Below, piece by piece: positions 9,852-47,831 of a stretch of DNA of 64,000 nucleotides (position 1 is its first letter; the number at the start of each line of letters is the position of its first letter). The notes beneath the pieces are model-generated. The model worked only from the letters and a program-made list of their open reading frames with translations. It was not told the DNA's origin and searched no databases. The stretch comes from Candidatus Neomicrothrix sp. UBA2974 (GTDB lineage Bacteria > Actinomycetota > Acidimicrobiia > Acidimicrobiales > MedAcidi-G1). The stretch spans positions 35,699-99,698 of the forward strand of contig DEAU01000014.1 in the NCBI GenBank assembly GCA_002348705.1, in the 5' to 3' direction. The position numbers were made by a program, and so were the translations under genes.

Positions 9852-9858
9852 GTCGCCT

Positions 9859-10356: not shown

Positions 10357-10461
10357 GCTTAGCCGCCTGTGTATCTAACCCTGAAAGATCTTCAGATTAG
10401 ACGGCACATGCCATTGGACTCCACCAGTAACGAGACTCCGGAAGAGATGTGATTCCGAACT

Positions 10462-30120: not shown

Positions 30121-31626
30121 CTAGGACCAGTCGAGGGACCGCTTAACAGCTTCGGACCAGCGCATTGCGAGGCGTTCCCGTTCAGATTGATCCATGTTCG
30201 GCCGCCAGCGTCCACCCTCGGTCCACTGGGCTCGGACCGCGGAGGTATCGTCCCATACCCCCTCGGCTAGACCGGCGGCATAAGCAGCACCAAGGGCTGT
30301 GGCTTCCTCAACACGTGGTCGAACGACGTCTATACCGAGGAGGTCAGCCTGGAACTGCATCAGTAGGTCGTTGACAACCATCCCGCCGTCCACACGGAGC
30401 TCTGTCATCTCCACCCTCCCGGCAATACCTTCATCATCTGCCTTGATGGATTCCACAAGTTCCGCGACCTGGAACGCCGTCGACTCGAGAACGGCTCGAG
30501 CCAAGTGTCCGCGATTAGCGAAACGAGTCAGGCCTACGAGGACCCCTCGCGCGTCGGGTCGCCAGTGGGGCGCGAATAGGCCGGAGAAAGCGGGAACCAG
30601 GTAGATATCACCGTTATCGTCGACGGTGCGGGCCAGCGCCTCCACCTCGTCCGAGTTGGTAATCAATCCGAGTTCGTCGCGGAGCCACTGGACCGTGGCT
30701 CCGGCCATGGCCACCGATCCCTCCAATGCGTATGTGGCAGTTTCGCCGGCAATCTGACAAGCGATGGTGGTGAGAAGCCCACGACTGGACGGTACGGGTG
30801 TGTTGCCGGTATTCATCAGGAGGAAGCAGCCGGTGCCGTACGTGTTCTTTGCGCTTCCGGATTCATGGCATCCCTGGCCAAATAGGGCTGCCTGCTGATC
30901 GCCGAGGATCCCAGAAATTGGTACGCCAGCAAGGTGACCGACCCCCAGGCCCAGTCGACCGATGGATGGAACCACTTCCGGCAAGGCCACCGCTGGTATG
31001 CCCATTGCCTCTATTAGGTCTGGATTCCATTCGAGCGTGGCAAGGTCGAGCAGTAACGTCCTCGAGGCATTGGTGACATCGGTTGCGAAACGTCCGCCTT
31101 CCGGTCCACCAGTGAGATTCCAGAGAAGCCACGAGTCCATAGTGCCGAGGAGGGCACGACCCGATTCGGTTGCGGCTCGCAGGCCATCGACTTCCTCCAG
31201 TAGCCACACTGCCTTTGGGCCGCTGAAGTATGTGGCAAGCGGCAACCCAGTACTGCTTCGAAACCGGTCAGTGCCACCGTTAGCCGCAAGTCTCTCCACA
31301 ATGCCTGCGCTGCGTGTGTCCTGCCAAACGATTGCAGGTGCTAGTGGACAGCCGGTTAATCGGTCCCATGCAACGAGGGTCTCGCGCTGGTTGGTTATAC
31401 CGATCGCGGCCAGATCGCCAGCCGCTAGGTCGGCTTCGGACAGCGCCTCCGATATGCAGGTCATAACGTTTTCGAGGATCTCGGCAGCATCATGTTCCAC
31501 CCAGCCGGGGCGGGGTAGGTGCTGGGCATGGGGCCGCTGAGCTGCTGCGACGACCGATCCGTCCTCGTCCACGACCAGGAACCGGGTACTTGTAGTTCCC
31601 TGGTCGATGGCACCGACGAGGGGCAC
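30121..31626 (-). CDS. glpK: glycerol kinase
   Basis: ORF track 30121..31764, but the first 46 codons overlap the upstream gene. GTG 31626 (or TTG 31632) gives [18 protein letters not shown], the canonical GlpK N-terminus. Confidence 0.9.
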
Positions 31627-31628
31627 GA

Positions 31629-32303
31629 TCAACCGCCCCGTCCGTTGGCTAATCCTGGGCCTCGGGCCCAGTCGGCTACGTAGGCGGGGACGGATTCCCC
31701 ACTGGTGTCCTCGCCGGGTAATGGTCCGCCCGCCGAAATGCCGAGGGGGATCAGGCCCGCCCACGTGTCTTCGGCCATGTCCTCGTCGTCATCAATCGGC
31801 GGACCAGTCCTCTCCTTCATCGAGCACTCCTTCAACGACAAGGCGAGACCGGTGGTGTTTCGAACCTCGGTGGCTGTCACGGGACGGATAGCGGCTACCC
31901 GACCCGGGATCACGTGATCAACGAAGCGATCGAGGGCCTGTACTTTTTCGTCGTAGTCAGTGACCACCACCGTTTTTCCCATCACTACCACCGAGCGATA
32001 GTTCATCGAGTGGCGGAGGCCGGATCTGGCCAGAACCTGGCCATCGAGCAGGGTGACCGTCACACAAATCTCGGCCCCCTTCTTGGCAGTCCTGAGTAGA
32101 CAGCTAGCCGGTGATTCATGGAGGAGAAGGTGGTCTCCGTCACGGGCATACAGCATCGGAATCACGACCGGGTGTACACCCGTGTCGCTTCCGGTGATCA
32201 GTCCTACGTGAACACCGAGGCCCTCGTCGAGAACCGCGTCAATAGCAGTCCGGGCGGTAACCGCCCGGTCGGGCTTTCGTCGGAGTTTGGTGCGATCGCT
32301 CAT
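31629..32303 (-). CDS. pyridoxamine 5'-phosphate oxidase-family (FMN-binding split barrel) protein
   Basis: ORF track 31629..32402. ATG 32303 ([14 protein letters not shown]) lies 10 nt after the PhzF-like stop. Pattern [16 protein letters not shown] is typical of the Pyridox_ox_2 type. Confidence 0.7.
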
Positions 32304-32313
32304 GCCGTGCCAA

Positions 32314-33117
32314 TTACGCCAGAAGTTTCCCGTGGACCACCGTGACAGCCCGGCCGGACAGATGCACTCGGTCGTCGACGAGTTGGACGCCGATTTCTCC
32401 ACCGCGGGCCGAGGCTTGTTCGGCTCGGAAGGCGTTGCCGATCCGGGACGCCCACCAAGCAGCCAGAGTGGTATGCGCCGAGCCGGTCACAGGATCTTCC
32501 GGTATACCGGTTCGAGGCGCGAAGAAGCGTGACACCACGTCCATATCGTCGCGATCATCACAGGCGGCGGTCACGATCACCCCTCGGGGTGCCAATCCTG
32601 CGATACCTGCCATATCTGGATTGCAGCTTCGGACCTCCGCCGCCCCACCAACTTCGACGAGAAGGTCTGTGGCCCCCTTCGCCGCCGCGAGTACCCGAGT
32701 TCCCACAGCATCCGACATAGCGGTCCCCACTTCACAACTCTCGATTACGTCTACTGGAAAGTCGAGTCGGATTGTGTCGTCCTCCACAATGGCTGACAGC
32801 CGACCTGACCGCGTGTGGAAACCCATTTCACCCTCTGCACCGTGCTCGGTGGCCAGAACGTGGGCAGTCGCCAACGTCGCATGTCCGCAGAGGTCGACTT
32901 CCACTGTCGGCGTGAACCACCGCAGTTCCCACTCCCCCACGTTCCCTTTCTCCATACCCGGCAATGGATGACAGAAGGCGGTCTCTGAGAGATTCATTTC
33001 GCTGGCGACGGCCTGCATCCACGCAGCATCGGCGGGCGCATCCATTACCAGTACTGCGGCGGGATTGCCGCAAAACGGCCGGTCAGCGAACGCGTCGACT
33101 TGGACGAACTCTTGCAT
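32314..33117 (-). CDS. PhzF-family isomerase/epimerase-like protein
   Basis: 267 aa. VDAFADRPFCGNPAAV, ETAF, FFAPRTGIPEDPVTGSAH are classic PhzF motifs. Confidence 0.85.
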   Translation of the reverse strand: MQEFVQVDAFADRPFCGNPAAVLVMDAPADAAWMQAVASEMNLSETAFCHPLPGMEKGNVGEWELRWFTPTVEVDLCGHATLATAHVLATEHGAEGEMGFHTRSGRLSAIVEDDTIRLDFPVDVIESCEVGTAMSDAVGTRVLAAAKGATDLLVEVGGAAEVRSCNPDMAGIAGLAPRGVIVTAACDDRDDMDVVSRFFAPRTGIPEDPVTGSAHTTLAAWWASRIGNAFRAEQASARGGEIGVQLVDDRVHLSGRAVTVVHGKLLA

Positions 33118-33358: not shown

Positions 33359-34279
33359 TTGGTTCCCCTCGACGAGACCTATGACGGCACCTTCCCCTTT
33401 GTGCCCCACACTTTCTCGGGCCACGGTTTCCTGCAGCATTACGTGGATGAGGGACCCCGGGACGCCGAGCCGATTGTGCTGTTGCACGGCGAACCCACCT
33501 GGGGATACCTGTACCGACACATGATCGCTCCACTTGCAGAGCAGTACCGCGTAGTGGTTCCCGACCACATGGGCTTCGGCAAGTCCGAGACTCCGCAGGA
33601 TCGCGAGTACACGCTGCAGGGCCATACCGAAAACCTGATAGCTCTCACTGAGCACCTTGACCTGAGAGATATCACGTTCTTCGGCCAAGACTGGGGCGGA
33701 CCGATCGCCACTGCGTTCACCGTTCGTCACCCGGACCGCGTGAAACGAATCGTGTATGCGAACTCGATAGCCGGATATGGGCGGATTGGAGAGCAGGATG
33801 CGACCCCGCTTACGAAGTCACGGTGGTTCACCTGGATAGGTGATGGACTGGACTCGGGACGAACCGAGGATGTCCTGTTAAATCTCGGCTCAACGGTCTT
33901 GTCGGTGATGAAGATCACCGGGTTCACCAACTCCGCAGCAATCGACGACACCTGGATCCGGGCATACTCCGACCCGTTCCCTGACCGGGAATCGGCCATC
34001 GGAGGACTCGAGTTTCCCTTGGACGCCTATCTGGGACGCATTGCCGACTACGTGATCGCCGGCGCCAACGGTGTGCCAGAACTGAGGTCTAAGCCAGCCA
34101 TGTTGTTGGAGGGCATGGAGGACAGAGCTATCCCACCAGACCTAGCCATTGCCGACTTTCGTGCACTGTGGCCGGAAGCGCCGGTAGTGGAAATGCCTGG
34201 AGTGGGCCACTACTGCCAAGAAGACGCACCTGAGGTTCTAGTGGCCAATGTCCTCCAGTTCATCCAGAAGAATCCATAG
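33359..34279 (+). CDS. haloalkane dehalogenase-like alpha/beta hydrolase
   Basis: 306 aa. TTG start 6 nt after GGGAGG. LHGEPTWGYLYRHMI, PDHMGFGKSE, FGQDWGGPIA (Asp nucleophile), GHYCQEDAPE. Confidence 0.85.
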   Translation: MVPLDETYDGTFPFVPHTFSGHGFLQHYVDEGPRDAEPIVLLHGEPTWGYLYRHMIAPLAEQYRVVVPDHMGFGKSETPQDREYTLQGHTENLIALTEHLDLRDITFFGQDWGGPIATAFTVRHPDRVKRIVYANSIAGYGRIGEQDATPLTKSRWFTWIGDGLDSGRTEDVLLNLGSTVLSVMKITGFTNSAAIDDTWIRAYSDPFPDRESAIGGLEFPLDAYLGRIADYVIAGANGVPELRSKPAMLLEGMEDRAIPPDLAIADFRALWPEAPVVEMPGVGHYCQEDAPEVLVANVLQFIQKNP

Positions 34280-34305: not shown

Positions 34306-35259
34306 CTACTGGATTCCGCCGAGGTGACTATCAGCGTCTGAGGCAACCTGGTCGGGCCAGTTGGTTCGCCAAACTTCAGACTGGACGTAGCCCATAGGTA
34401 TAGACCGCATCTCGAAGTGCTCCAATGGCGCAAGGAGCGGCTCGGCTACCACGGCATGGTTCGGAACCACGAAGAATGGTGCGCTATAGCGCTCTGCTCC
34501 GGCAACATTGCTAACCCGATGTGGCGTCGAAACAAGGCGCCCTCCTGACCACACCTCCAGAACGTCCCCCACGTTGATCAACAGTGCGCCCTCCGGACAG
34601 AAGGCCTTTACCCAGCGTCCATCTCGAGTTCGGACCTCTAGGCCTCCTACCGGGTCCGGATCTAGCATTGTCACCACGGAGATGTCTTTGTGTGGATGAA
34701 AACCCGGCGACCGGTCCTCTGGCTGCTTCGCCGGATAGTGCAAAAGGGTCACATTGGTGAGCGGTGCCTCCATTCCTCGAGAGAGGATTTCGTAATCGAG
34801 GCCGAGCTCGTTTGCCAGGATGATCAGCAGGCGGTCAGCGAGTCCTTCCATAGCAGACCACCACGAGGTCACGACGTCGGGCATCTCCGGAAGATGATCC
34901 GGCCAGAGGTTTGATCCGTAGAGACTGCACTCGCCGCGGACCGGATGTCCGGGCGGGCACTCCCAGTGCAACTTGTAGCCCTCGAAGGCGTCGGCCGGAG
35001 CACCGTTGTCCCGGTTCGGAGTAAAAAATCGCAAGGGAATGAAGCCCCGATAGTTGTCGGGCTGCACCGCACAGCGTCGTTTTGCGGCATCGTCGACAGC
35101 GAACAAGGCGACAAGGAGTCGACGCATGGCTACCAACTCGCAATGCTGTACCCCGTGGCCCCGTACTGCGGCGAACCCTGTTGTCGCGAAAGCATCTATC
35201 AGGCCGCGGCTATCGGCTAGGTCGACCACCGGAATGCTGCTCGCGGACCATTCTGCCAT
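34306..35259 (-). CDS. 2OG-Fe(II) oxygenase (isopenicillin N synthase-like family)
   Basis: 317 aa. HPHKD (HxD), STPHRV, RYSAPFF (RxS). TGATG overlap with the upstream M24 gene. Confidence 0.85.
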   Translation of the reverse strand: MAEWSASSIPVVDLADSRGLIDAFATTGFAAVRGHGVQHCELVAMRRLLVALFAVDDAAKRRCAVQPDNYRGFIPLRFFTPNRDNGAPADAFEGYKLHWECPPGHPVRGECSLYGSNLWPDHLPEMPDVVTSWWSAMEGLADRLLIILANELGLDYEILSRGMEAPLTNVTLLHYPAKQPEDRSPGFHPHKDISVVTMLDPDPVGGLEVRTRDGRWVKAFCPEGALLINVGDVLEVWSGGRLVSTPHRVSNVAGAERYSAPFFVVPNHAVVAEPLLAPLEHFEMRSIPMGYVQSEVWRTNWPDQVASDADSHLGGIQ

Positions 35260-36440
35260 CAGATAATTGGCAACTCCGGCGGAGCCCGGCGAGACAGCAG
35301 TTCGGGCCCGCCGGCTCGAACGACCAAATTCTCCTCATGAACCATCATCCGGCCCGCGGCCCATGTCAGCCCTGGTTCGAGGGTAAGAACCATGCCCTCC
35401 TCAATCACCGTCCCGTCATCCACTGTGTGCGACGGCCACTCAGTGACCTGCATTCCCAAGCCATGTCCAAGCCGACCCACAGAATTTCCCAACGAACCAC
35501 CGGCTTCTAACACATTCGACATGGCCTGCCAGAGGTCACTGGTTGTCGCACCGGGCCGCACCGCTGCCAAGCCAGCTTCGGTCGCGTTCCAGACGACCTG
35601 ATAGGCGCGTCTCGCGTCATCGGCTGCGTGGCCAAACGCTACGTACCGATCAAAATCGCTCGAATAACCATCGTAAGTTGAACCTGTATCAAACATGAGA
35701 AGATCGCCCGCTTCTATCAGGCGATCCGAAGGCTGCTTGATGATGTCGTCAAAGCCTGGACCTGTTGCACCTACGAGGTAGGGGACGTCGTCAGCGCCCC
35801 TCTCCAATAGGTCAATCTTGAATGCCTGAAACGCTTCTCGTTCGGTCATACCGACCGATAGAAGTCCACCAATGCCCTCAAAGGCTCCGGACACCACGTC
35901 GCAAATATGGGAGACCTTGCCGATCTCCCGATCGGATTTCACCATGCGTAGCCTTCGCACGATGTCGGTTGCATCGACGAAGAAAGCAGGCGTGACTCGG
36001 GCTCGTAAAGCGTCGAGGTCACTCAGCGGCATACGAACGTGCGTCTCATGTCCCATCGGGAGACCGATGCGGACCTCATCACCGGAACCGTCGACCTGTC
36101 CTGCTAAGACCTCCTCGATGGTCTCAACCAGAAGGCACAATCCATCGTCAGCCGGGCGGGGTGCCGGCCAAGTTCGGATGTCATCCACCCATGTTGTTCC
36201 CATTGCCGAAGCTCCGATGTTGGGAATCACGGCTATCGGACGCCCATCTGCCGGCAAGACTACGAACCACGGTCGGGTCGGACTTTGCCAAAACGGCGTG
36301 TGGAAGCCGGTAAAGTAACGGACTTCCGGTTCAGTGCACACCAGCAGTGCCGCCAGCCCCCGCTCGGCCATCATCGCCTGGGCCCGGGCTGCCCGGGCCT
36401 CGTACTCGGCGTCTGGAAAGCCCCGCTCAGGCGTTCTCAC
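35259..36440 (-). CDS. M24-family metallohydrolase (Xaa-Pro peptidase / ectoine hydrolase DoeA-EutD-like)
   Basis: 393 aa. Creatinase-type N-domain (FPDAEYEARAARAQAMM). All five pita-bread metal ligands present (MFDTG, SDFDR, GHGLG, TLEPG, VHEEN). Confidence 0.8.
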   Translation of the reverse strand: MRTPERGFPDAEYEARAARAQAMMAERGLAALLVCTEPEVRYFTGFHTPFWQSPTRPWFVVLPADGRPIAVIPNIGASAMGTTWVDDIRTWPAPRPADDGLCLLVETIEEVLAGQVDGSGDEVRIGLPMGHETHVRMPLSDLDALRARVTPAFFVDATDIVRRLRMVKSDREIGKVSHICDVVSGAFEGIGGLLSVGMTEREAFQAFKIDLLERGADDVPYLVGATGPGFDDIIKQPSDRLIEAGDLLMFDTGSTYDGYSSDFDRYVAFGHAADDARRAYQVVWNATEAGLAAVRPGATTSDLWQAMSNVLEAGGSLGNSVGRLGHGLGMQVTEWPSHTVDDGTVIEEGMVLTLEPGLTWAAGRMMVHEENLVVRAGGPELLSRRAPPELPII

Positions 36441-37279
36441 CTGGGCTCTCCTACCGGCACACCGTCTAGGTCGAGGTGATAGAGGCGGCCCAGACCCTCA
36501 ATACGGTCCTGGATCCCGGCTAGGCGCAGCAGGTGCCAGCCGAAGGCGAGGTTGCTGGACACCACCGGCACACCCAACTCGTTCTCTAGCGCACCAGCGA
36601 CGCCGAATGCCCTCAAACTGGTGCATGACACGAAAGCAGCTTCCGGACGGCGGCCCGTAGCTTCCTCGGCCGCCCTCACCAGCTGGCGGACCCCGTCGGC
36701 CACCGTCTCCTCGGTCATCCGGGCCACCGTGGCGTCGCTCTCCTCAAGAAACGATCCTGCAGCCACCACCTCGAGTCCGCGCTCACCAAGTAGGCCGGTG
36801 ATCCCGGAAGTGACTTCGGCGCTGTATGGCGTCACCACGACGACCTGCTGTGCCGATAGTGCTGACAGGGCCGACAGCACGGCTGATATGGGATTGGTGT
36901 TGGGCACATCAGGATGGGCGACTCGCAGGACGCTGGAAACTCGCTCCTCACCAATCAGCGTGGCAGCCGATGTGCAGCCGTAGCCCACTACGTCCAGGCA
37001 GAGCGCCGGCGGCAGCAGTTTCGCCGCCTCCGGGATTCGCTCCTCCATTCCAAGCAGGGTCTCCGGGGTGACCCTGTCCTCCATGGCGATTCGGGTGGCG
37101 AATGCAGCCACGCCATCTGGCCACAGGCGGCTCAGTTCGGCCTCGACAGTCTGGTCGTTCTCTAGGACTACTAGGCCGACGCGGGCTCGGGCGCCGAACC
37201 CACTGTCTGTGGAGAACTCGAGGGAAGTCAGGGCACCATTGTCTGGGCGAGCATTAGGCGCATTCTGATAGGTCGTCAC
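36437..37279 (-). CDS. Asp/Glu/hydantoin racemase-superfamily protein (maleate isomerase / arylmalonate decarboxylase / EutA-like)
   Basis: 280 aa. The two catalytic-position Cys motifs VGYGCTSAA and FVSCTSLR. 4-nt overlaps with both neighbours. Confidence 0.75.
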   Translation of the reverse strand: MTTYQNAPNARPDNGALTSLEFSTDSGFGARARVGLVVLENDQTVEAELSRLWPDGVAAFATRIAMEDRVTPETLLGMEERIPEAAKLLPPALCLDVVGYGCTSAATLIGEERVSSVLRVAHPDVPNTNPISAVLSALSALSAQQVVVVTPYSAEVTSGITGLLGERGLEVVAAGSFLEESDATVARMTEETVADGVRQLVRAAEEATGRRPEAAFVSCTSLRAFGVAGALENELGVPVVSSNLAFGWHLLRLAGIQDRIEGLGRLYHLDLDGVPVGEPR

Positions 37280-38142
37280 GTAGGCACTCCCCGAGCCTGC
37301 TGGTCAAAGAACGATGCCGTCTCGGGTACCTCTGCGATCGGCATCTCGTACTCCACGCAACGAATCCGGCCTGTCGCGACACCTCTGACTAGTTCACCTT
37401 CGTTCGCGCTTGGAAGGTGGTTGGGGTGAAGGATTCGGCTGTCCTCAGACCGATAGCTGAAAATCGACAGGGTTCGCGACACCTCGGTCAGGTTTGGCCC
37501 CGATCCGTGGACGAGACGGGTGTGCATCAGGCACGCCGTGCCAGCCGGACCGTAGCAGTCCACTGAATCACCAAGCCCGGCCAGGTCCCCTTCGGCGATG
37601 GTGCCGGTGAATATCCCATCCTGCCAGTGATCAAAGATTGCCCCGCGGTGCGTGCCCGGCACTACTTCCAACGGCCCGTTCTCCGGCGTAACGTCGTCCA
37701 CGAACAGCAGTACAGCCAACATGTCATCATTGGTATGAGCCTCGTAGGCAAAGTCCTGGTGGAACCGGATCTCGGTGGCTGTACCGGGCTGTTTGCAGTT
37801 GGTCTTCACGTTGTTGACCACGATGTTCGGGCCGATCACCTGTGCGGCTGCGTCGACCAGTGGACTGTCACGCATGACCCGCAGGTGGGCCTGGCACACC
37901 TCCTGGGGGGACGCCACTCGTCGCAGAGCCGGAAGGTCAACAGAATGGCCGGGCTGAACGTCAAACCGAGGGCGGTGGTCCATCGTCTCTCCCCATGGAC
38001 CGCTATGACCGCGACTCTCCTCAACCCAGCCTGCAACCGCCGCACGCAGGTCCACCAGATCGTTCGCTGACACGGCATCAGCCATCATCACGTAGCCGTC
38101 CCGCCAGAAGGCGTCTACCTGCTCTTTGCTCAATGGTCCCAT
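37276..38142 (-). CDS. phytanoyl-CoA dioxygenase (PhyH)-family Fe(II)/2OG oxygenase
   Basis: ORF track 37276..38364. ATG 38142 (MGPLSKEQVDAFWRDGYV) lies 25 nt after the upstream stop. FHQDFAY (HxD), LVHGSGPN, SRT. Confidence 0.8.
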   Translation of the reverse strand: MGPLSKEQVDAFWRDGYVMMADAVSANDLVDLRAAVAGWVEESRGHSGPWGETMDHRPRFDVQPGHSVDLPALRRVASPQEVCQAHLRVMRDSPLVDAAAQVIGPNIVVNNVKTNCKQPGTATEIRFHQDFAYEAHTNDDMLAVLLFVDDVTPENGPLEVVPGTHRGAIFDHWQDGIFTGTIAEGDLAGLGDSVDCYGPAGTACLMHTRLVHGSGPNLTEVSRTLSIFSYRSEDSRILHPNHLPSANEGELVRGVATGRIRCVEYEMPIAEVPETASFFDQQARGVPT

Positions 38143-38167
38143 CAGCGCGAGTCTGCCTTGCGTACCG

Positions 38168-39229
38168 TCAGATGTGGTCACCCCGCGCTCCGTTGATTCC
38201 GCTGCGGGGCTCGTGTTCGTAATGTTCGATGGGTGGCGGCTCGGTGCGCATTTCACGGATAGTCCGCTGGATGTCTGCCACTGCGTGCTCGAGAAGGCCA
38301 GCAGCCGTTGCCTGGTCGATTCCATAAGGAACTGTGGCGAGAAGGTCCTCGAGGCGTCCCACACCCCGCCAAGCAGCGTGCCGAACCCATTCGGTTGGTA
38401 AGACAGCTGGATCGTCTACGCCAACCAGATCCTGCGAGCGGGACTGGTCATCCCGGGAACGGTCAAGAGCTACGTAGCCGTTGACCATAGTGATTCGTTC
38501 GGCCGCCTCGGTCAGCGGCCCACCACGGTGGACAACCATGTTTCCGTGTATGGCGACCGCCCACCCCGGCCCACCGAAGTCGGGGGCCATCACCCTGTCG
38601 GCAGGTGGCCTCTCCCCGCTCGCTGCCAACTCAGCTGCCTCAGTCTTCGTTCCGAGAAAGACTTCAAATCTTCCACCCGGCAAGGTCCGCGGATCGGTTA
38701 CCGGCATGACATAGTCGAGTGGCAACGTGTCATGGTGCCATTTGTCCACAGCTTCGCCGACTCTGGTTGGCTCGTAGTTGAGATGCCCAAGGTGGACCGG
38801 CATGGAGTGTGGTGCCACTTCTGTTCGGTAGATAGACGACAGAAGCTCAGTGACTTCGGGCGCCAGACACAGGGCACGCAGCCATCGGGAACGGTGGCAG
38901 CCGCCACGCACCATGTTGTCGATCCGTTCCCGAGCCCGGGCCCCGTATGGACGGAGGCGGCGAGCCACGTCCAGAAGGATTGCCGCACCCTCGTCGGAGA
39001 GCACTTTGAACGGTGATGAGAAGGCAACCGGGCTAGCCGTTGGGGCGATGTCGTCCTCCTCGTAGCCGAGGTCGGCCAGCATCACCACGTCTTCGGGTGG
39101 CTGGGGATCGAGGTGTAGAGACGGGTCAAAGGTCGGTTCGTTCTCAAACCATTCGTAGCCCGGTGGCTGGACCTCCGGAAACGCCAGTGGAAGGCGGGTC
39201 TGGTCCACGCTTGTGTTCAATTCACTCAT
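38168..39229 (-). CDS. hypothetical protein with 2OG/Fe(II)-oxygenase-like facial triad (unclassified double-stranded beta-helix)
   Basis: 353 aa. WHHDTLPLD (HxD) ... AIHGNMVVHRGGPLTEAAERIT (distal His, then R-x-T 11 residues later). No family recognised beyond this. Confidence 0.6.
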   Translation of the reverse strand: MSELNTSVDQTRLPLAFPEVQPPGYEWFENEPTFDPSLHLDPQPPEDVVMLADLGYEEDDIAPTASPVAFSSPFKVLSDEGAAILLDVARRLRPYGARARERIDNMVRGGCHRSRWLRALCLAPEVTELLSSIYRTEVAPHSMPVHLGHLNYEPTRVGEAVDKWHHDTLPLDYVMPVTDPRTLPGGRFEVFLGTKTEAAELAASGERPPADRVMAPDFGGPGWAVAIHGNMVVHRGGPLTEAAERITMVNGYVALDRSRDDQSRSQDLVGVDDPAVLPTEWVRHAAWRGVGRLEDLLATVPYGIDQATAAGLLEHAVADIQRTIREMRTEPPPIEHYEHEPRSGINGARGDHI

Positions 39230-39234
39230 CGTGG

Positions 39235-41289
39235 TTACAGGTACTGGAGGAGTCGTCGGGCATCGAGTAGGGCTGAGGCGACGTCACGGCTCGCCACGCA
39301 GTCGCCGATGCGGTACACGAGCGGTCCCGTATTATCCAAGAAGACTGGCTGAGGACTCCCGGCGGCGAGGGCGGCCAGGTCTGAGACGCCGTCATTGGTC
39401 GATTTCAGTCTCAACGCTCGGAACAACGCATCCTCGGGAACCACGCCGTGTTCTACCACCACTGCGTCAACGATGCGTTCCACCTCAACCCGGGTGTATT
39501 CGTTGCGCAGAACCACCCGGAGCGCTTCATCCTCGGATTGTCCAGTCCGCTCGACCTGAACCAGTCTGTGGTCCGGCGTCATTGTCACCGCTCCGCCGTA
39601 GAGCATCCGTAGGTACGTCGGACCGAGTGGCGTGGCCAAATCAAGCCCGATGTGGCGGTCCGGTGTCGCAACTTCGAGGTCTTCCAACCCGACTTCAACC
39701 AGGTGTTCGACGACAGCGAGACCCCGCTCTGCACCATGATCATCAAATACCAGCACCCGTCCGAACGGCCGCACGTGGCCGCCGAGGACGTCCCACGACG
39801 AATAGACAAGATCCGCTCCCTCGTCCAACACCCAAGACGGGTCAGGCCCTCCGCCGGTGGCCACCACAACTACGTCAGGCTCCTCGCTCCATACTTCGTC
39901 AACACCCACCGGCGTGGCCAGTCGGACGTCCACTGCGAGATATCGAACCTCACCGACTAGCCAGTCGATGAGGCCGGCGACTTCCCGCTGTCGTTCCGCT
40001 GCCCGTGCCATCAGCGCCAACTGTCCGCCTAGCCTGTTCTGGGCTTCGAACAGGACAACCTCATGACCGCGTTCGGCACACGTCCGAGCCGCTTCCAGAC
40101 CCGCCGGGCCTCCGCCCACCACCACCACCCGCCGTTTCGGGTCCTCGGACCGGGTCACCAACTGCGGCACAGTCGTCTCCCGCCCGGTCGCCGGGTTCTG
40201 GATGCACACCGAGTCGAGGCCAAGGTGTAACCGGTTGATACAGAGTGATGCGCCCACGCAAACCCTTATCCGGTCGGCCTCACCGCGGGCGAGTTTTGAA
40301 ACCAAATGTGGATCGGCGAAGTGAGCACGGGTCATGCCGACTAAGTCCACGACACCGGATTCCACGGCGTGGCGAGCCGTGGCTACATCGGTCACCCGGG
40401 TTGCGTGCAGAATTGGCACCTCGGTGGCTGCACGCACCGCCGCAACTACCGTCAGATACGGGGCCAGTGGCGTACCCGCCGGTGGGATGGCCTTCGACAG
40501 ACCATCGTCGGTGGCCAAAGATGGTCCGGCCACGTTCAAAAAGTCGATAAGTCCCGACTCGGCGAGACTCACAGCGATTGCGCAGCAGTCGTCGGCTGTC
40601 AGTCCTCCCGGCTGATCCTCGGTGCCGAGCATGCGAAGGCCGACCCGTAACCGTCCGTCTGCGGTCTTCTGGACCGCTTCTAGCACCTCGAACGTCAGCC
40701 TCAGCCGATTCTCCAGCGAGCCCCCGTAGTTGTCGGTGCGGCGATTCACCAAGGGTGACCAGAACTGGTCCAGTAGGTGGCTGGTGGCGAGAAGTTCGAT
40801 CCCGTCAAGCCCGGCGTCGACGGCTCTACGGGTGGCCATCGCGAAATCGGCCACTACCCGCTCTAGGTCGGCCGGCTCAGCCTCCTTGGGCCAAAAACGG
40901 TGCATGGGCTCGCGCACCGGCGACGGGGCAATTGTGGGTAGCCAGGCGCCGTCATTAGAAACGTTACGGCGCCCCATGTGGGTGAGTTGGCACATTATGG
41001 CCGCGCCGTGGCCATGGATTCGCTCCACCATGACAGCCAACGGATCTATTACGGCGTCGGTGGCGAACGACAATTGGCCCCAAAGCGATGCTGAGTCGAT
41101 CGACACATTCGACGAGCCGCCGATCATGGTGAGCCCGATCCCGCCTAGGGCCTTCTCTTCGTGATAGCGGACATAACGGTCACTGGGAGTGCCATCAACG
41201 TTGTAACCCGGCGAATGACTGCTGGAGAACACCCGGTTCCGTAGACGTAGGCCGGCGAGGTCGAACGGTTCGAGAAGAGGGTCGTTCAA
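39235..41289 (-). CDS. two-domain flavoprotein: OYE-like FMN barrel + FAD/NAD(P) domain (2,4-dienoyl-CoA reductase / DgcA / StcD N-demethylase family)
   Basis: 684 aa. TTG start after GGAGA. LRLRNRVFSSSHS N-terminus, Cys motif C-x5-C-x11-C, VVVVGGGPAGLEAA dinucleotide fold. Confidence 0.85.
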   Translation of the reverse strand: MNDPLLEPFDLAGLRLRNRVFSSSHSPGYNVDGTPSDRYVRYHEEKALGGIGLTMIGGSSNVSIDSASLWGQLSFATDAVIDPLAVMVERIHGHGAAIMCQLTHMGRRNVSNDGAWLPTIAPSPVREPMHRFWPKEAEPADLERVVADFAMATRRAVDAGLDGIELLATSHLLDQFWSPLVNRRTDNYGGSLENRLRLTFEVLEAVQKTADGRLRVGLRMLGTEDQPGGLTADDCCAIAVSLAESGLIDFLNVAGPSLATDDGLSKAIPPAGTPLAPYLTVVAAVRAATEVPILHATRVTDVATARHAVESGVVDLVGMTRAHFADPHLVSKLARGEADRIRVCVGASLCINRLHLGLDSVCIQNPATGRETTVPQLVTRSEDPKRRVVVVGGGPAGLEAARTCAERGHEVVLFEAQNRLGGQLALMARAAERQREVAGLIDWLVGEVRYLAVDVRLATPVGVDEVWSEEPDVVVVATGGGPDPSWVLDEGADLVYSSWDVLGGHVRPFGRVLVFDDHGAERGLAVVEHLVEVGLEDLEVATPDRHIGLDLATPLGPTYLRMLYGGAVTMTPDHRLVQVERTGQSEDEALRVVLRNEYTRVEVERIVDAVVVEHGVVPEDALFRALRLKSTNDGVSDLAALAAGSPQPVFLDNTGPLVYRIGDCVASRDVASALLDARRLLQYL

Positions 41290-41332
41290 ACCATTCTCCG
41301 CTCAGACGGGATGCGTTCCGGGAGCCGCTGCC

Positions 41333-41348
41333 TCAGACAAGTGTCTGA
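41333..41348. promoter_or_regulatory. 7-2-7 palindrome TCAGACA-ag-TGTCTGA upstream of the six-gene operon
   Basis: Perfect inverted repeat 44-59 nt upstream of the flavoprotein start (41289), in the 138-nt gap after cysC. Confidence 0.3.
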
Positions 41349-41427
41349 TACAGCAGCACCAGCGGTGGTCGCGCGGACGTAGGTCCGGAGACTTGGCAAG
41401 GCCCGCGAGTTCAGCCGCACGAACCTT

Positions 41428-42060
41428 CTACCCAACTGTTTCTGGTTCTCGGCCGATCCCTAGATGCCTGAGGACAGCCAGAACGCATGTCTCCAGAGGT
41501 TCAGAGGCATCCAAATGGAGGTCAGGCTCGGCTGGCTCCTCGTATGGGGCGGAAACCCCACTGAACTCTGGAATTTCGCCGGTCCTAGCGCGGGCGTAGA
41601 GCCCTTTCACATCTCTCTCCTCACAGGTCTCGAGCGAAGCGTCAACGAACACCTCGGAGAACGTTCCTGCTGGGTGAAGGGCCCGGACAGTTGAACGATC
41701 GGCCCGATATGGAGAGATGAACGCTGAGATGACGACGAGGCCCGCATCTTGGAAGAGTCGACAGACTTCACCCACTCGCCGGATGTTCTCGGTGCGATCC
41801 TCGGGCGAAAATCCCAAGTCGCGATTGAGAGCCAAACGAACGTTGTCGCCGTCGAGGACGTAGGCGGCGATTCCCCTATCGACTAGTGCCGCTTCTACCG
41901 AGTAGGCGATACTCGACTTGCCCGACCCCGACAGTCCAGTTAGCCAGACGGTATGACCTGCATGGCCGGTGACAAGGGCTCGTCGCTCGGAACCAACTTG
42001 GCCGTCGGTTCGAGTGAGGTTCCGATTCCCACCAGATGCAGGGAGGACTCCGTCAGACAT
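41428..42060 (-). CDS. cysC: adenylyl-sulfate (APS) kinase, stand-alone
   Basis: 210 aa. Canonical GLSGSGKSS P-loop, LDGDNVR, FISPYRADR, DVKGLY, SAPYEEP. 8-nt overlap with the cysNC stop. Confidence 0.9.
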   Translation of the reverse strand: MSDGVLPASGGNRNLTRTDGQVGSERRALVTGHAGHTVWLTGLSGSGKSSIAYSVEAALVDRGIAAYVLDGDNVRLALNRDLGFSPEDRTENIRRVGEVCRLFQDAGLVVISAFISPYRADRSTVRALHPAGTFSEVFVDASLETCEERDVKGLYARARTGEIPEFSGVSAPYEEPAEPDLHLDASEPLETCVLAVLRHLGIGREPETVG

Positions 42061-43972
42061 CGATCACTCCGCGCTCGACGAGCAGTTTGAGAATGGCGTC
42101 GACGCACTCATCGACACTCTGGACTGACGCATCGAGCCGTAACTCCATATCGGTCGGCTGTTCGTAGTCCGACGAGACTCCTGGAAAGTTCGGAATCTCG
42201 CCTCGGTCCGCAGCCTCGTAATGGCCGTTCGGGTCCCGCTGGCGGCATACGTCGAGTGGGGTGTCTACGAATACTTCCAGAAATCGGTGTCCGCCAATGA
42301 GTTCCCGAGCCCTATCCCGCACCTCAACCTCGGGAGCGACGAGCGCTGCAATTGCGATCAGGCCTTGCCGGTTAGCGAGTAGAGCTACTTCGGCCACACG
42401 GCGAAGGTTCTCGGAACGGTCTTGGGAACTGAAGCCAAGGTCTCGGCTAATCCCAAGTCGAACATTCTCTCCATCAAGACGGACCGTCGTGCGTCCCAGG
42501 TCGAACAGGCGACGCTCCAGAGCGGCGGCGATAGTTGACTTTCCGGCAGCAGTTAGGCCTGTCAGAAGAACAGTGCACGGCCGTTGACCGAGACGGGCAA
42601 CCCTCTCCTCGGGAGTGATTTCGGAGCGATAGCGGACCAGTCCACCATCAGGTTCACGATCCCACCCCGAGGTGGCGCCAAGGATCATTCCTGCGGCCAC
42701 CGTAGCGTTGGTCATGCGGTCTACGAGAACGAAGGAACCGGTCTGGCGTCCCTCGCTGTAGGGGTCGAAAAGCAGGGCCCGCTCGGCCACCAACGTGCAG
42801 CACGCGATGTCATTCAGCGCTAGCGCATCGGCCGAGACTTCCTCACCACTGTTGACATCGATCCTGTGGTGTATGGCTGCCAATGAGGCGTCGACCTCGC
42901 CTCCGATTGAGCGCAGGATGAGGCGCCGGCCCGGTTTGACCGGGTCAGCGGCCATCCATACCAGGGTGGCGTTGACATCATGAGCCCGCGCAGGATGATG
43001 GTCGACACCGACGAGCAGGTCACCGCGGCTCACATCAATCTCGTCGGCAAGCGTGATGGTTACAGCGTCGCCGGGTTGGGCCTCGTCGAGATCACCGTCG
43101 AAGGTAACAATTCGTTCAACCGTAGATCTGACCGCCGATGGAAGAGCGACGACTTCGTCACCTAGGCGAAGCTTTCCGGCGGCAATAGTTCCGGCGAATC
43201 CTCGGAAGTCGAGGTCTGGCCGAACGACCAGTTGGACGGGAAACCGCAGCCAATCGAGATCAAGTGACTCAGATACGTCGACGGTCTCCAGGTATTCCAT
43301 GAGGGGCGGCCCGTCGTGCCAGCTGAGGTGTGAGCTTCTATCCACCACATTGTCGCCGTGGAGGGCGGATATGGGCATGTAGTGGGCATCAACCACGCCG
43401 AGACCGGAGGCAAAGGTCTGATGCTCGGCCGCCACCTCGTCGAACCGGTCCTGCGACCAGCCCACTAGGTCCATCTTGTTTATGGCCACGACCAGGTTTT
43501 GGATTCCCAGAAGATGGGCGATGAGTGTGTGTCGACGGGTCTGATCGAGGACTCCGTTTCGGGCATCGACCAGAACAACTGCGAGTTGGCAGTTGGAAGC
43601 GCCCGTCACCATATTTCGGGTGTACTGCTCGTGTCCGGGAGTGTCAGCGACGATGAACTTTCGTCTGGAAGTTGAGAAATAGCGGTAAGCCACATCAATG
43701 GTGATGCCCTGCTCGCGTTCCGCCTTCAAACCATCCATGAGAAGGGCTAGGTCCAGACCATCACCGGCCGACCCCATCGTCGTTGAGTCCGCTTCCAAAC
43801 TCGCCAGTTGGTCTTCGTAAATCATCGCCGAATCGTGGAGGAGGCGACCGATGAGTGTCGACTTGCCGTCGTCCACGCTGCCACACGTCAACAGCCTCAG
43901 GAGATCCTTTCGTTCGTGCTCAGCTAGATAGGCATCAATATCTGTGGCAATGAGCTCGGAGGCGTGGGACAT
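42053..43972 (-). CDS. cysNC: sulfate adenylyltransferase subunit 1 fused to an APS-kinase-like domain
   Basis: 639 aa. GTPase motifs GSVDDGKSTLIGRLL, DTPGH, NKMD. C-terminal ~185 aa are kinase-like with divergent motifs (GLTAAGKST, LDGENVR, LVAPEVEVR, DPNGHY). Confidence 0.9.
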   Translation of the reverse strand: MSHASELIATDIDAYLAEHERKDLLRLLTCGSVDDGKSTLIGRLLHDSAMIYEDQLASLEADSTTMGSAGDGLDLALLMDGLKAEREQGITIDVAYRYFSTSRRKFIVADTPGHEQYTRNMVTGASNCQLAVVLVDARNGVLDQTRRHTLIAHLLGIQNLVVAINKMDLVGWSQDRFDEVAAEHQTFASGLGVVDAHYMPISALHGDNVVDRSSHLSWHDGPPLMEYLETVDVSESLDLDWLRFPVQLVVRPDLDFRGFAGTIAAGKLRLGDEVVALPSAVRSTVERIVTFDGDLDEAQPGDAVTITLADEIDVSRGDLLVGVDHHPARAHDVNATLVWMAADPVKPGRRLILRSIGGEVDASLAAIHHRIDVNSGEEVSADALALNDIACCTLVAERALLFDPYSEGRQTGSFVLVDRMTNATVAAGMILGATSGWDREPDGGLVRYRSEITPEERVARLGQRPCTVLLTGLTAAGKSTIAAALERRLFDLGRTTVRLDGENVRLGISRDLGFSSQDRSENLRRVAEVALLANRQGLIAIAALVAPEVEVRDRARELIGGHRFLEVFVDTPLDVCRQRDPNGHYEAADRGEIPNFPGVSSDYEQPTDMELRLDASVQSVDECVDAILKLLVERGVIDV

Positions 43973-44880
43973 CAGAAGTAGCCCTCCCGCTTCTTTTCCT
44001 CCATCGAGCCCGCTTGATCGTGATCGATGACACGGCCCTCTCGTTCTGACCGAGTCGCAAGCAGCATTTCCTGGATAACTTCAGGCAACGTGGTCGCGGT
44101 GGACTCCACGGCCCCGGAGAGCGGATAACAGCCGAGCGTGCGAAATCTCACCGCGCGCATCTCAGGCGATTCGCCGTCAGTGAGCCTGAAACGCTCGTCG
44201 TCAACCATGATCAATGTGCCGTCCCTCTCCACCACCGGCCTAACGGCAGAAAAGTAGAGGGGCACGATCGAAATCTGCTCAAGATGGATGTACTGCCAGA
44301 CGTCCAGTTCAGTCCAGTTGCTGATTGGAAAAACCCGAATGCTCTCTCCCCGATGCACGCGACCGTTGTAGAGGTTCCAGAGTTCGGGTCGCTGGTTTTT
44401 TGGGTCCCAGCGGTGGTGCCGATCTCGGAAGCTGAAGACGCGCTCCTTGGCTCGGGATCGCTCCTCGTCGCGGCGGGCTCCGCCAAATGCTGCATCGAAT
44501 CCACCAGCCTCTAGGGCCTGCTTCAATGCCTCCGTCTTCATGACGTCGGTGTAGTTCCGAGACCCATGGTCGAAGGGATTGATGCCAGCCGCCACGCCCT
44601 CCTCGTTGGTGTGCACCACCAGTTCTAGGTCAAGGTCAGCAGCTGTACGATCGCGGAATTCGATCATCTCCCGGAACTTCCATGTGGTGTCCACATGAAG
44701 AAGCGGAAATGGGATGCGTCCGGGGTGGAACGCCTTCCGGGCCAGATGAAGCAGGACTGAAGAGTCCTTTCCGATGGAGTACAGCATGACCGGTCGCTCG
44801 AACTGAGCTACCACTTCGCGCATCACATGGATGCTCTCGGCTTCGAGTTGCTGCAGATGTGTGCGACGCATGACGTTCAC
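43972..44880 (-). CDS. cysD: sulfate adenylyltransferase subunit 2
   Basis: 302 aa. [29 protein letters not shown] (PP-loop). TGATG overlap with cysNC. The start is GTG 44880 or ATG 44871. Confidence 0.92.
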
Positions 44881-46877: not shown

Positions 46878-46919
46878 CAGAAAGCCCAACCTCCTACCTG
46901 ACCCATGATCGGAGACAAG

Positions 46920-47831
46920 ATGCGTATCGCCGCCGTCCAGGACTCACCGGCATTCCTCGACCGGACCACCACGATTGAGATCGTCCGCTCCCGGATAGCC
47001 GAGGCAGGATCAGGCGGCGCTGACCTGATCGCCTTCCCTGAGGTGTTCCTCATGGGGTACCCGGTGTGGATAGACAACACGGACGCGTCGGCATGGGAGA
47101 AACCCGACCAACAGGAGGCGTTCGCGCGATACCTCGACCAGTCAGTCGACTTATCCAGCGACGAATTTGGGACCGTCGTCGAAGCAGTGCGGGAGTCCGG
47201 GGCTTTCACCTACTTGGGAGTCGTCGAAAAGGCTGTCTCACGTGGCTCCGTCTACTGCTCATTGGTTGCCATTGATCCCATTTCCGGGATCGTCGGTGTT
47301 CACCGCAAACTCAAGCCGACCTACGGCGAACGCCTCGTTTGGAGCGATGGCGACGGGGCGGGTCTCGTGGCCCACGACCACCAGGGTGTCCGACTGACCG
47401 GCCTGAGTTGCTGGGAAAACTGGATGCCTCTCGCCCGCACCGCCATGTATGGCACTGGCGCACAAGTCCATGTGGCGGCCTGGCCTGGATCGGCGGGCCT
47501 CACCGAGGACATCACTCGCTTTATAGCCAAGGAGGGTCGCATATTCGTGGTCAGCGTCGGGGCGGTCTATGACTCCGCGATGCTTCCCGACGATTTTCCA
47601 CTCAACGAGCAGATTCCTGACGGCCAGAAGTTCCACGACGGTGGTACCTGTATCGCCGGGCCGGACGGATGCTGGGTGGTCGAGCCAGTCCGCCATACGA
47701 AGGGCATCATTTGGGCAGAACTTGAGATCGGAGAAGTCGCTCGGCAACGACAGAACTTCGACCCAACTGGCCATTACAGCCGACCTGACGTGCTACGCCT
47801 CGATGTCAGTCGCACTCGACTTGCTCCCTAA
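46920..47831 (+). CDS. nitrilase / carbon-nitrogen hydrolase
   Basis: ORF track 46905..47831. ATG 46920 follows GGAGA. Glu-Lys-Cys triad contexts AFPEVF, HRKLKPT, LSCWENWMP. Confidence 0.85.
   Translation: MRIAAVQDSPAFLDRTTTIEIVRSRIAEAGSGGADLIAFPEVFLMGYPVWIDNTDASAWEKPDQQEAFARYLDQSVDLSSDEFGTVVEAVRESGAFTYLGVVEKAVSRGSVYCSLVAIDPISGIVGVHRKLKPTYGERLVWSDGDGAGLVAHDHQGVRLTGLSCWENWMPLARTAMYGTGAQVHVAAWPGSAGLTEDITRFIAKEGRIFVVSVGAVYDSAMLPDDFPLNEQIPDGQKFHDGGTCIAGPDGCWVVEPVRHTKGIIWAELEIGEVARQRQNFDPTGHYSRPDVLRLDVSRTRLAP

Follow-up and report, generated by a model that had tools for sequence, protein, structure and literature searches.

Organization of the operon and its upstream region

We analyzed a stretch of 64 000 nt from contig DEAU01000014.1 of Candidatus Neomicrothrix sp. 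UBA2974, in the following called the window, and focused on six genes on its minus strand at positions 34306–41289, which we designate G1 to G6 in the direction of transcription. A previous sequence-only reading had described them as a translationally coupled operon containing three Fe(II)/2-oxoglutarate (2OG) oxygenases and had proposed a catabolic pathway with features reminiscent of ectoine degradation. Our listing of the open reading frames (ORFs) reproduced its coordinates for six co-directional genes and all five spacings, which from G1 to G6 are +5, +25, –4, –4 and –1 nt and include three start–stop overlaps. G1 (39235–41289, 684 aa, TTG start) encodes a flavoprotein of the HpbA/DgcA/StcD type, with a flavin mononucleotide (FMN) domain of the old yellow enzyme (OYE) type and a flavin adenine dinucleotide (FAD)/NAD(P) part. 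G2 (38168–39229, 353 aa) is a Fe(II)/2OG oxygenase distantly related to BesD/HalD and G3 (37276–38142, 288 aa) is a Fe(II)/2OG oxygenase of the PhyH family. G4 (36437–37279, 280 aa) has the Asp/Glu-racemase or Amdase fold with two cysteines, G5 (35259–36440, 393 aa) is an M24 ‘pita-bread’ metallohydrolase (Creatinase_N and Peptidase_M24), and G6 (34306–35259, 317 aa) is an oxygenase with DIOX_N and 2OG-FeII_Oxy domains. For G3 the longest ORF begins at 38364, inside G2, but the ATG at 38142 is backed by homologues of 287–296 aa. Searches with hidden Markov models (HMMs) assigned Pfam domains to G1, G3, G4, G5 and G6 and none to G2. Every motif quoted previously was present in the translations and is conserved in homologues from related loci, and the metal and 2OG ligands, whose loss on proper alignment would have spoken against the earlier proposal, are conserved in the homologue alignments. 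Judged by these features of the sequence, we consider the six genes to be one operon of active-looking enzymes with conserved catalytic motifs.

Directly upstream of G1, on the same strand and separated from it by 138 nt, we found the genes cysD–cysNC–cysC, which had been overlooked before. CysD (43972–44880) is the small subunit of sulfate adenylyltransferase (NF009214, 533 bits at a cut-off of 413), CysNC (42053–43972) is a fusion of the large subunit with an adenylyl-sulfate (APS) kinase (NF004035, 903 bits, cut-off 715) and CysC (41428–42060) is a stand-alone APS kinase (Pfam APS_kinase 4.3e-65, NCBIfam match above cut-off). We noted that two APS-kinase functions lie next to each other here, the C-terminal domain of CysNC and the separate CysC, and this doubling suggests a high or special demand for 3′-phosphoadenosine-5′-phosphosulfate (PAPS).

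The gap between cysC and G1 (41290–41427, minus strand) holds an inverted repeat at 41321–41360. The perfect palindrome reported for this gap exists insofar as there are two perfect 7-nt arms with 2 nt between them (TCAGACA-AG-TGTCTGA on the plus strand, 41333–41348), nested in a 19-nt inverted repeat of 79% complementarity; it is not conserved, as it is missing at the orthologous loci L001–L004. Comparable inverted repeats occur 46 times in the window, corresponding to about 0.1 expected by chance per 138 nt, and on these two grounds we rejected the palindrome as a conserved operator. The RNA folding of the gap beats that of shuffled sequences (z = –2.8), and no promoter, terminator or riboswitch/Rfam signal above background was observed within the 138 nt. 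In relatives the counterpart of the gap is occupied by a sulfotransferase gene, with or without a gene for a second Amdase-fold protein, AmdB.

Conservation and modular structure of the operon

Homologous loci, numbered from L001 onward, were collected by a genome scan with G2, which gave 36 loci, and by a metagenome scan with the sulfotransferase family, which gave 80 loci (L054–L133) with at least 372 relatives confirmed. The ORFs around the homologues were clustered using a codon-position GC filter for this high-GC DNA. Whether the gene order is kept in related genomes had been left as a check, and we observed that it recurs in at least seven independent marine Acidimicrobiia assemblies. 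The complete order G1–G6 is found at 65–87% identity in four metagenome-assembled genomes (MAGs) of Acidimicrobiales (L001–L004) and likewise in L054 and L057, and L041 shows the 3′ part of the operon, G3–G6. A Microthrix MAG (L022) has G2–G3–G4–G5 and a short contig (L015) has G2–G3–G4. The conserved core is G2–G3–G4–G5, with the triad G3–G4–G5 inside it. G1 and G6 are accessory members, because both are missing in L022 and L060–L062 and G6 is also missing in L055.

The triad itself is conserved in many marine Actinomycetota, as observed in context look-ups with G4 homologues, with identities to the window proteins of 54–60% for G3, 53–62% for G4 and 65–75% for G5. Its gene order is reshuffled among these genomes but the adjacency persists, and L049 and L050 contain it by itself, as a unit of three genes. 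Elsewhere its partners change and comprise Cys_Met_Meta_PP, DAO and Aminotran_5 proteins, a second PhyH protein, a G6-like oxygenase, a major facilitator superfamily (MFS) transporter, luciferase-like monooxygenases, AA_synth and an aldehyde dehydrogenase. Several of these variable partners (Aminotran_5, DAO, Cys_Met_Meta_PP and the aldehyde dehydrogenase) are deaminating or oxidizing enzymes. Among the G4 homologues, a single cluster formed at 90% identity has index entries in 298 blocks of the assembly collection, and in the plasmid collection no close homologues of G2, G3 or the sulfotransferase were found.

These data bear on the question whether the six genes are a functional unit at all or mere neighbors in a compact genome. 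Streamlined marine genomes do pack unrelated genes tightly, G2 is found alone elsewhere, and G1 and G6 are dispensable in some versions of the operon. However, the three start–stop overlaps, an order held across 65–87% identity, a G2–G5 core that reaches as far as Microthrix (L022) and a triad that stays together in many Actinomycetota despite reshuffling make mere neighborhood hardly credible.

Association with PAPS synthesis and a sulfotransferase

The proximity to the cys genes is not restricted to the window. We observed cysD–cysNC–cysC upstream of the operon also in L002–L004 and L058, whereas L054–L056 show cysC up to the contig end. In L003 and L004 cysC lies upstream of G1, with a gap of about 42 nt in L004, and in L002, L054–L056 and L058 a sulfotransferase gene lies in between. 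The operon of L002 is expanded and reads cysC, a Sulfotransfer_5 protein, Amidohydro_3, G1, an enolase-superfamily protein and G2 to G6; the enolase-superfamily protein, inserted next to G1, belongs to the subgroup of HpbD and cis-3-hydroxyproline dehydratase. The sulfotransferase matches Pfam Sulfotransfer_5 at 1.6e-15, and its alignment keeps the motifs P-R-S-x-S-T and R-D-P, which we take to be typical of PAPS binding. The same protein (74% identity) is encoded directly before G2 in L015 and L022, and a position between cysC and G1, or right before G2, is seen in L002, L015, L022, L054–L062 and L085.

In several of these loci the sulfotransferase (ST) is preceded by AmdB, an Amdase-fold protein without either catalytic cysteine that has QVGTNW and NGMPN at the respective sites. 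We rejected AmdB as a copy of G4, since the two match only at E 1e-5 by BLASTP and 1e-8 by profile and both cysteines are absent. The arrangements are cysD–cysNC–cysC–AmdB–ST–G1 and onward in L058, cysC–AmdB–ST–G1–G2–G3–G4–G5 in L055, cysC–ST–G1 through G6 in L054, ST–G1 through G6 in L057 and AmdB–ST–G2–G3–G4–G5 in L060–L062 and L085. Taken together, the larger conserved unit is cysD–cysNC–cysC–(AmdB)–(sulfotransferase)–G1–G2–G3–G4–G5–(G6), of which the window operon is the downstream part. PAPS is physically linked to the operon in two independent ways, by the upstream cys genes and by the sulfotransferase of the relatives.

Of the 80 sulfotransferase loci, 57 have AmdB next to the sulfotransferase gene, 13 contain cys genes, 13 contain homologues of G1–G6 and 8 carry additional sulfotransferase paralogues. 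The pair of AmdB and Sulfotransfer_5 protein is widespread in marine metagenomes and usually immediately adjacent (L053:9183–10004 and the 57 loci mentioned). Further partners at these loci are of the osmolyte type and include dehydratases resembling HpbD/c3LHyp dehydratase and AcnX. A second family of HalD-type hydroxylases (F32), with a clear HalD match, lies right before AmdB–ST–SDR–AcnX in L066 and L067. L078 combines the sulfotransferase, a G1-like protein, F32 and an EutB-like dehydratase (382 bits, cut-off 413). L125 shows the order choline-sulfatase-like protein, G1-like protein, SDR, a dioxygenase resembling γ-butyrobetaine hydroxylase/TmpA, a TetR regulator of the BetI type, AmdB and ST. 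At seven loci AmdB–ST is followed by a PotABCD-like importer. A different picture is seen in L080 (positions 2–5090), where a gene resembling a non-ribosomal peptide synthetase (NRPS; domains TE-A-PCP, i.e. thioesterase, adenylation and peptidyl carrier protein), a zinc alcohol dehydrogenase and a different M24 protein lie beside AmdB–ST; this locus looks biosynthetic.

Predicted activities of the oxygenases

For G2, searches of Pfam and NCBIfam and sequence-based searches of the PDB returned no match. With PF23169 (HalD, gathering score 26 bits) no hit was obtained for G2 even at E up to 10, and its homologues scored 14.5–25.3 bits. Structure prediction followed by Foldseek, proposed earlier for this gene, revealed a Fe/2OG fold of the BesD/HalD type with the ligands in place. 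The AlphaFold model, built from 40 sequences, has a predicted local distance difference test score (pLDDT) of 88, and its top matches are 7jsd (a lysine hydroxylase of the BesD family), 6nie, 9oer and 7u6h (E about 1e-6, probability 1.00); BesD and the halogenases HalA/B/D rank high and GriE and EctD come next. The identity to the BesD/HalD structures is 13–18%, with a TM-score of 0.41 by query length and 0.55 by target length, and G2 exceeds them by about 100 residues and carries a helical extension at its C-terminus. Residues H165, D167, H234 and R245 (in WHHD, VHR and E-R-I-T) are invariant in 42 sequences. Because of its H165-H166-D167 motif (H-x-D), G2 should be a hydroxylase and not a halogenase. 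Its orthologues are 55–80% identical from Acidimicrobiia to Alpha- and Gammaproteobacteria and fall into a single 50% cluster, while the superfamily comprises about 520 clusters. In six alphaproteobacterial MAGs (L013, L016, L017, L019, L021 and L035, at about 8100–11000) the G2 orthologue is preceded by genes for a UDP-glucose-dehydrogenase-like and a RidA-family protein, and a cupin gene and a glutathione S-transferase (GST) gene are convergent to it. This setting is recurrent and distinct from that of the operon; the neighbors were named by reading their sequences.

G3 matches Pfam PhyH at 3e-22, and its top PDB matches are EctD, proline hydroxylase (7dt0, 7e01) and the leucine hydroxylase GriE. 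Against the EctD model TIGR02408 it reaches 56.7 bits at a cut-off of 336.5. H128, D130 and H212 (in H-Q-D and H-G-S) are conserved in 17 sequences. By these matches the nearest relatives of both G2 and G3 appear to be hydroxylases of free amino acids (lysine, ectoine, proline, leucine). The top PDB match of G6 is 9ovh (1.7e-35), named as an ethylene/succinate-forming enzyme (EFE), and its motifs HPHKD, STPHRV and RYS (H-x-D, H and R-x-S) are conserved in seven sequences. The Fe(II)/2OG facial triad H-x-D/E…H with a basic residue is present in G2, G3 and G6, and the Pfam matches of G3 (PhyH) and G6 (2OG-FeII_Oxy) exceed their cut-offs. The earlier count of three Fe/2OG oxygenases stands, but they cannot all be called unrelated: G2 and G3 are both PhyH-like by fold, and only G6 is of the DIOX_N type.

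Predicted activities of G4 and G5 and the question of ectoine catabolism

G4 matches Pfam Amdase (5.5e-23) and Asp_Glu_race. Its nearest family is EutA, as had been proposed, and it is closer to EutA than to arylmalonate decarboxylase or maleate isomerase, but with 183.6 bits (E 4e-54) it stays below the TIGR02990 cut-off of 318. The two catalytic cysteines, C102 (GYGCTS) and C219 (VSCTS), are invariant in 18 sequences. For G5, alignment to the prolidase 1wy2 shows the five metal ligands D, D, H, E and E, and all 20 homologues conserve them, with a single sequence gapped at the His position. The assignment as an M24 hydrolase with intact ligands holds, whereas the likeness to DoeA/EutD is weak. 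Prolidases and PepE are the best PDB matches with 105–107 bits (1wy2, 107), compared to 59 for creatinase and 47 for DoeA (6twk). The DoeA/EutD models TIGR02993 and NF038259 give 59.1 and 63.5 bits at cut-offs of 613 and 575, and the annotated doeA product of R. etli is 26.7% identical over 61% of the length. We also considered a DddP-like dimethylsulfoniopropionate (DMSP) lyase and rejected it, as no chain named DddP or DMSP lyase is among the 60 PDB matches at E ≤ 1e-5.

Homologues of both proteins are found on proteobacterial plasmids, with 54–55% identity for G5 and 43–45% for G4 and with the M24 and racemase genes adjacent or nearby. On pSR3 of Aminobacter sp. SR38 a LysR gene is followed by an amino-acid ABC importer, G4, G5, an M20 peptidase and a cystathionine β-lyase. 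In Aliiroseovarius and Roseovarius pelagicus we observed an amidohydrolase, a diaminopropionate ammonia-lyase and the M24 and racemase genes together with Lrp or GntR regulators, and in R. pelagicus this cluster also lies beside an importer annotated as EhuCDA. These are typical breakdown islands for amino-acid derivatives.

The results allow an evaluation of a divergent ectoine or hydroxyectoine catabolism, in which G5 would be the ectoine hydrolase, G4 would be EutA and G3 would act on ectoine like EctD. The top NCBIfam matches of G3 and G4 are indeed EctD and EutA, G5 weakly matches the DoeA models, a G4 homologue lies near the EhuCDA-annotated importer of R. pelagicus and L078 has the EutB-like dehydratase mentioned above. 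Nevertheless, all scores are below the cut-offs (57 against 336 for G3, 184 against 318 for G4 and 59–64 against 575–613 for G5), G5 resembles prolidases better than annotated DoeA, and eutB, eutC, eutE/doeB, doeC and doeD are not found in or beside the operon, as already stated by the sequence-only reading. The neighborhood of EutA and DoeA, which that reading had named as the hallmark of ectoine clusters, does not apply here since neither G4 nor G5 reaches its family cut-off. On the curated cut-offs and the identity to annotated DoeA we rejected membership in the ectoine pathway and consider ectoine as the substrate very improbable.

Predicted activity of G1

G1 shows the architecture of the HpbA/DgcA/StcD flavoproteins (about 680 aa, OYE-type FMN domain and FAD/NAD(P) domain), with Pfam Oxidored_FMN at residues 5–338 (8.9e-45) and Pyr_redox_2 from residue 384. 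It is 46.4% identical, end to end over 685 columns (558 bits), to a protein of Paracoccus aestuarii named HpbA by PGAP, which is not the characterized Pden_1197. This full-length identity and a three-cysteine motif common to both proteins support the previous reading of G1 as a DgcA/StcD-like flavoprotein. Its top PDB matches are two-domain flavoenzymes, namely 2-naphthoyl-CoA reductase, 2,4-dienoyl-CoA reductase and the histamine and trimethylamine dehydrogenases. The Fe-S motif at residues 344–362 retains three of the four cysteines of FadH/NCR and has alanine at the second position: G1 and HpbA share C-V-G-A-x2-C…C, where FadH/NCR have C-x2-C-x3-C…C. Alanine is present at this position in 11 of 12 G1 homologues, and because HpbA has the same three-cysteine feature, the G1/HpbA clade may bind a different Fe-S cluster, or none. 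The role of HpbA as an N-methyl-L-proline demethylase is based on genetics in Paracoccus (PMC3950512). G1 is likely an N-methyl amino-acid demethylase or an amine dehydrogenase, although at 46% identity to HpbA its substrate need not be N-methylproline.

Proposed function

From the folds, catalytic residues, conserved gene order and gene associations described above we infer a class of substrate, a direction of the pathway and a set of possible steps. Our preferred reading, which we put forward tentatively, is that the enzymes break down or salvage a zwitterion of the amino-acid type through hydroxylation, epimerization, hydrolytic cleavage of a C–N bond and N-demethylation, with a connection to sulfate-ester chemistry in relatives. 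Most likely the substrate is an N-methylated and/or cyclic imino or amidine compound of the osmolyte kind. The earlier guess, an osmolyte of the amino-acid type that is cyclic or N-methylated, agrees with the gene neighborhoods of the homologues, which include amino-acid ABC importers, a BetI-type regulator, a γ-butyrobetaine-hydroxylase-like enzyme and HpbD- and EutB-like enzymes. The steps, given here in no particular order, could be as follows. G2, G3 and G6 would hydroxylate C–H bonds of a free amino-acid skeleton. G4 would take off and return the Cα proton, resulting in epimerization, or in elimination if the β-carbon bears a leaving group. G5, as a two-metal M24 hydrolase, could cut a C–N bond (amide, imide or amidine), and G1 could oxidatively take off an N-methyl or N-alkyl group. 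The gene beside the BesD-like hydroxylase in relatives encodes a PAPS-dependent sulfotransferase, and therefore a sulfate ester of the new hydroxyl is a likely intermediate or product there. We favor breakdown or salvage over synthesis because the nearest characterized relative of G1 is a catabolic demethylase, because close homologues of G4 and G5 sit in importer-bearing islands, because the variable partners of the triad are deaminating enzymes and because sulfatases are frequent neighbors.

Several observations weigh against this interpretation. PAPS supply together with a sulfotransferase, with up to three paralogues per locus, is a hallmark of biosynthesis, and one sulfotransferase locus (L080) includes the NRPS-like gene. 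A search with the sulfotransferase-family HMM found no sulfotransferase in the 64-kb window, AmdB was not found there either, and both are also absent from L003 and L004; the sulfation link may thus not apply to this genome, or it may be provided by another of its loci. Synteny inherited among related Acidimicrobiia could also account for the adjacency to the cys genes. Homologues of G2 (55–64% identity) are found alone in unrelated contexts in about 30 proteobacterial genomes, and G2 may therefore have a general role independent of the other genes. In or beside the window operon there is neither a transporter nor a regulator.

We also considered that the pathway could run in the opposite direction and produce a hydroxylated, O-sulfated metabolite derived from an amino acid, for example a compatible solute bearing a sulfate group or a secondary metabolite of small size. 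The oxygenases would then hydroxylate, one or more sulfotransferases would use the local PAPS and G4, G5 and G1 would tailor the skeleton, with the sulfotransferase of the window version being encoded elsewhere or lost. Such a route would agree with the PAPS genes directly upstream, including the redundant cysC, with the sulfotransferase inside the operon in the 13 loci listed above, and with the two to three sulfotransferase paralogues that accompany cysC or cysDN in L065, L068, L076, L086 and L105. It would agree as well with the divergent MFS transporter in L015 and L022, with the NRPS-like TE-A-PCP gene in L080 and with the trio of hydroxylase, sulfotransferase and APS kinase known from the cylindrospermopsin cluster. 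However, the demethylase nearest to G1 is catabolic, close homologues of G4 and G5 lie beside importers that depend on substrate-binding proteins and beside deaminating lyases, a PotABCD-like importer follows AmdB–ST in seven loci, sulfatases are often nearby, the triad is alone in some genomes and the window has no sulfotransferase. A biosynthetic role is therefore unlikely in our view.

A more specific proposal, which we offer as a speculative possibility, is an as yet undescribed ‘hydroxylate, sulfate, then eliminate or transform’ chemistry in the ordinary metabolism of abundant marine bacteria, of which the window would contain a version without the sulfotransferase. A BesD-like hydroxylase would add a hydroxyl to an amino-acid-type zwitterion, and the Sulfotransfer_5 enzyme with its Cys-less Amdase-fold partner would make the sulfate ester, drawing PAPS from the adjacent cysDNC–cysC. 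The racemase-fold, M24 and HpbA-type enzymes would then process this ester, and sulfate would act as a hidden leaving group or be part of a new sulfated osmolyte.

The triad G3–G4–G5 and the AmdB–sulfotransferase pair are common in marine metagenomes and yet have no characterized orthologue. Identification of the substrate would explain what a gene set recurring in marine Acidimicrobiia and Actinomycetota, sponge-associated lineages included, is for, and would point to a component of dissolved organic matter that is used or made by its carriers. The physical link to PAPS synthesis suggests a tie between amino-acid or osmolyte metabolism and sulfate esters. In addition, G2 represents a tightly conserved family of predicted Fe/2OG hydroxylases without a Pfam model of its own, whose nearest relatives are of biocatalytic interest.

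Neighboring genes and a possible role in sulfur metabolism

Downstream of the operon a convergent α/β hydrolase gene (33359–34279, plus strand; Pfam Abhydrolase_1) is conserved in L001, L002, L041 and L055 at 78–86% identity; whether it belongs to the pathway is uncertain. It is followed at 30121–33117 (minus strand) by genes for the glycerol kinase GlpK (above cut-off), a Pyridox_ox_2 protein and a PhzF-family isomerase, the latter two with ORFs that overlap by about 90 nt as listed. This synteny is kept in L003, L004 and L041 and partly in L002 and L057. On the other side, divergent from cysD, a gene for a flavin monooxygenase resembling FMO and one for a nitrilase-family CN_hydrolase lie at 45351–47831 (plus strand). 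The position of the FMO gene is conserved in L003 and L058, and CN_hydrolase genes are also seen near the triad in L038 and L042. Further away, a DUF1989 protein (52902–53750, minus strand) is weakly similar to urea-amidolyase-associated proteins and to trimethylamine N-oxide (TMAO) demethylase, and a cysteine-synthase-like PALP enzyme (49661–50596, minus strand) stays below the CysK and CysM cut-offs. A three-gene operon at 24503–29006 (minus strand) encodes a sulfatase (776 aa, Sulfatase and SGSH_C), an M20 peptidase/deacylase and a 4HBT_3 protein resembling acyl-CoA thioesterases. The pairing of sulfatase and 4HBT_3 recurs near the triad in L042 and an M20 gene follows G4–G5 in Aminobacter. 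This operon may belong to the same metabolism as the six genes.

Some of these neighbors could also indicate that the six genes are part of a sulfur-acquisition regulon, whose substrate, an amino acid or peptide containing sulfur or else a sulfate ester, would be degraded as a source of sulfur. This would explain the place of the operon beside the cys genes and is consistent with its same-strand adjacency to cysD–cysNC–cysC and with the cysK-like PALP gene and the sulfatase operon in the window. At other loci, Cys_Met_Meta_PP lies right before the triad in L039, the cystathionine β-lyase follows G4–G5–M20 in Aminobacter, a sulfatase is near the triad in L042, and luciferase-like monooxygenases, of the superfamily of SsuD, lie beside it in L038, L040 and L047. 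On the other hand, the three oxygenases all belong to types other than TauD/AtsK, no sulfur-specific domain was found in G1–G6, luciferase-like genes are so common in Actinomycetota that their adjacency may be chance, and the sulfotransferase uses up activated sulfate and frees no sulfur. We regard sulfur scavenging as a third, rather improbable possibility.

Comparison with known systems

Literature searches that covered the combination of genes, Sulfotransfer_5 and acidimicrobial sulfotransferases found neither a characterized orthologue nor a published description. Close orthologues in a characterized pathway, which would have contradicted the claim of the sequence-only reading that this is not the described ectoine pathway, did not turn up, and together with the family scores below their cut-offs this upholds the claim. 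The catabolism of ectoine and hydroxyectoine (EutABCDE/DoeABCD in Ruegeria pomeroyi, Halomonas elongata and Sinorhizobium meliloti) nevertheless draws on the same superfamilies of enzymes and probably follows a common logic, with an M24 hydrolase that opens or cuts a C–N bond of a zwitterion and an EutA-type Amdase-fold protein alongside. The proteobacterial islands resemble it in the combination of an M24 hydrolase with a deacylase and a pyridoxal-phosphate enzyme. In contrast, the operon described here has no deacetylase, EutB, EutC, transaminase or dehydrogenase, but contains three Fe/2OG oxygenases and an HpbA-type flavoprotein and, in relatives, the sulfotransferase.

The catabolism of proline betaine and hydroxyproline betaine in Paracoccus denitrificans (HpbA, HpbB/C and HpbD; PMC3950512) resembles our operon in its flavoprotein, with G1 being 46% identical to PGAP-named HpbA, and a gene of the HpbD subgroup is present in L002. 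In the window, however, neither the Rieske demethylase HpbB/C nor HpbD is found, and the partners of G1 are Fe/2OG oxygenases, an M24 hydrolase and a racemase-fold protein. Compared to the BesD/HalD family (PF23169; 6nie, 7jsd, 7u6h), which acts on free lysine and ornithine, G2 has the H-x-D motif as do the hydroxylases of that family.

Clusters with a PAPS supply of their own and a sulfotransferase next to a hydroxylase are known. The cylindrospermopsin cluster has a hydroxylase, a sulfotransferase and an APS kinase together (CyrI, CyrJ and CyrN), and sulfation serves to make a leaving group in the ST-TE of CurM and in aziridine formation in ficellomycin and vazabitide. The fuller versions of our operon likewise combine an APS kinase, a sulfotransferase and a Fe/2OG hydroxylase in one unit. 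They differ in having no polyketide synthase or NRPS and in being surrounded by enzymes of the catabolic type and by importers, and their sulfotransferase, a member of the uncharacterized Sulfotransfer_5 family, has a Cys-less Amdase-fold protein as its partner. Taken together, the enzyme superfamilies and the general logic are known, whereas the combination of genes, the G2 family, the AmdB–sulfotransferase pair and the coupling to PAPS synthesis are new.

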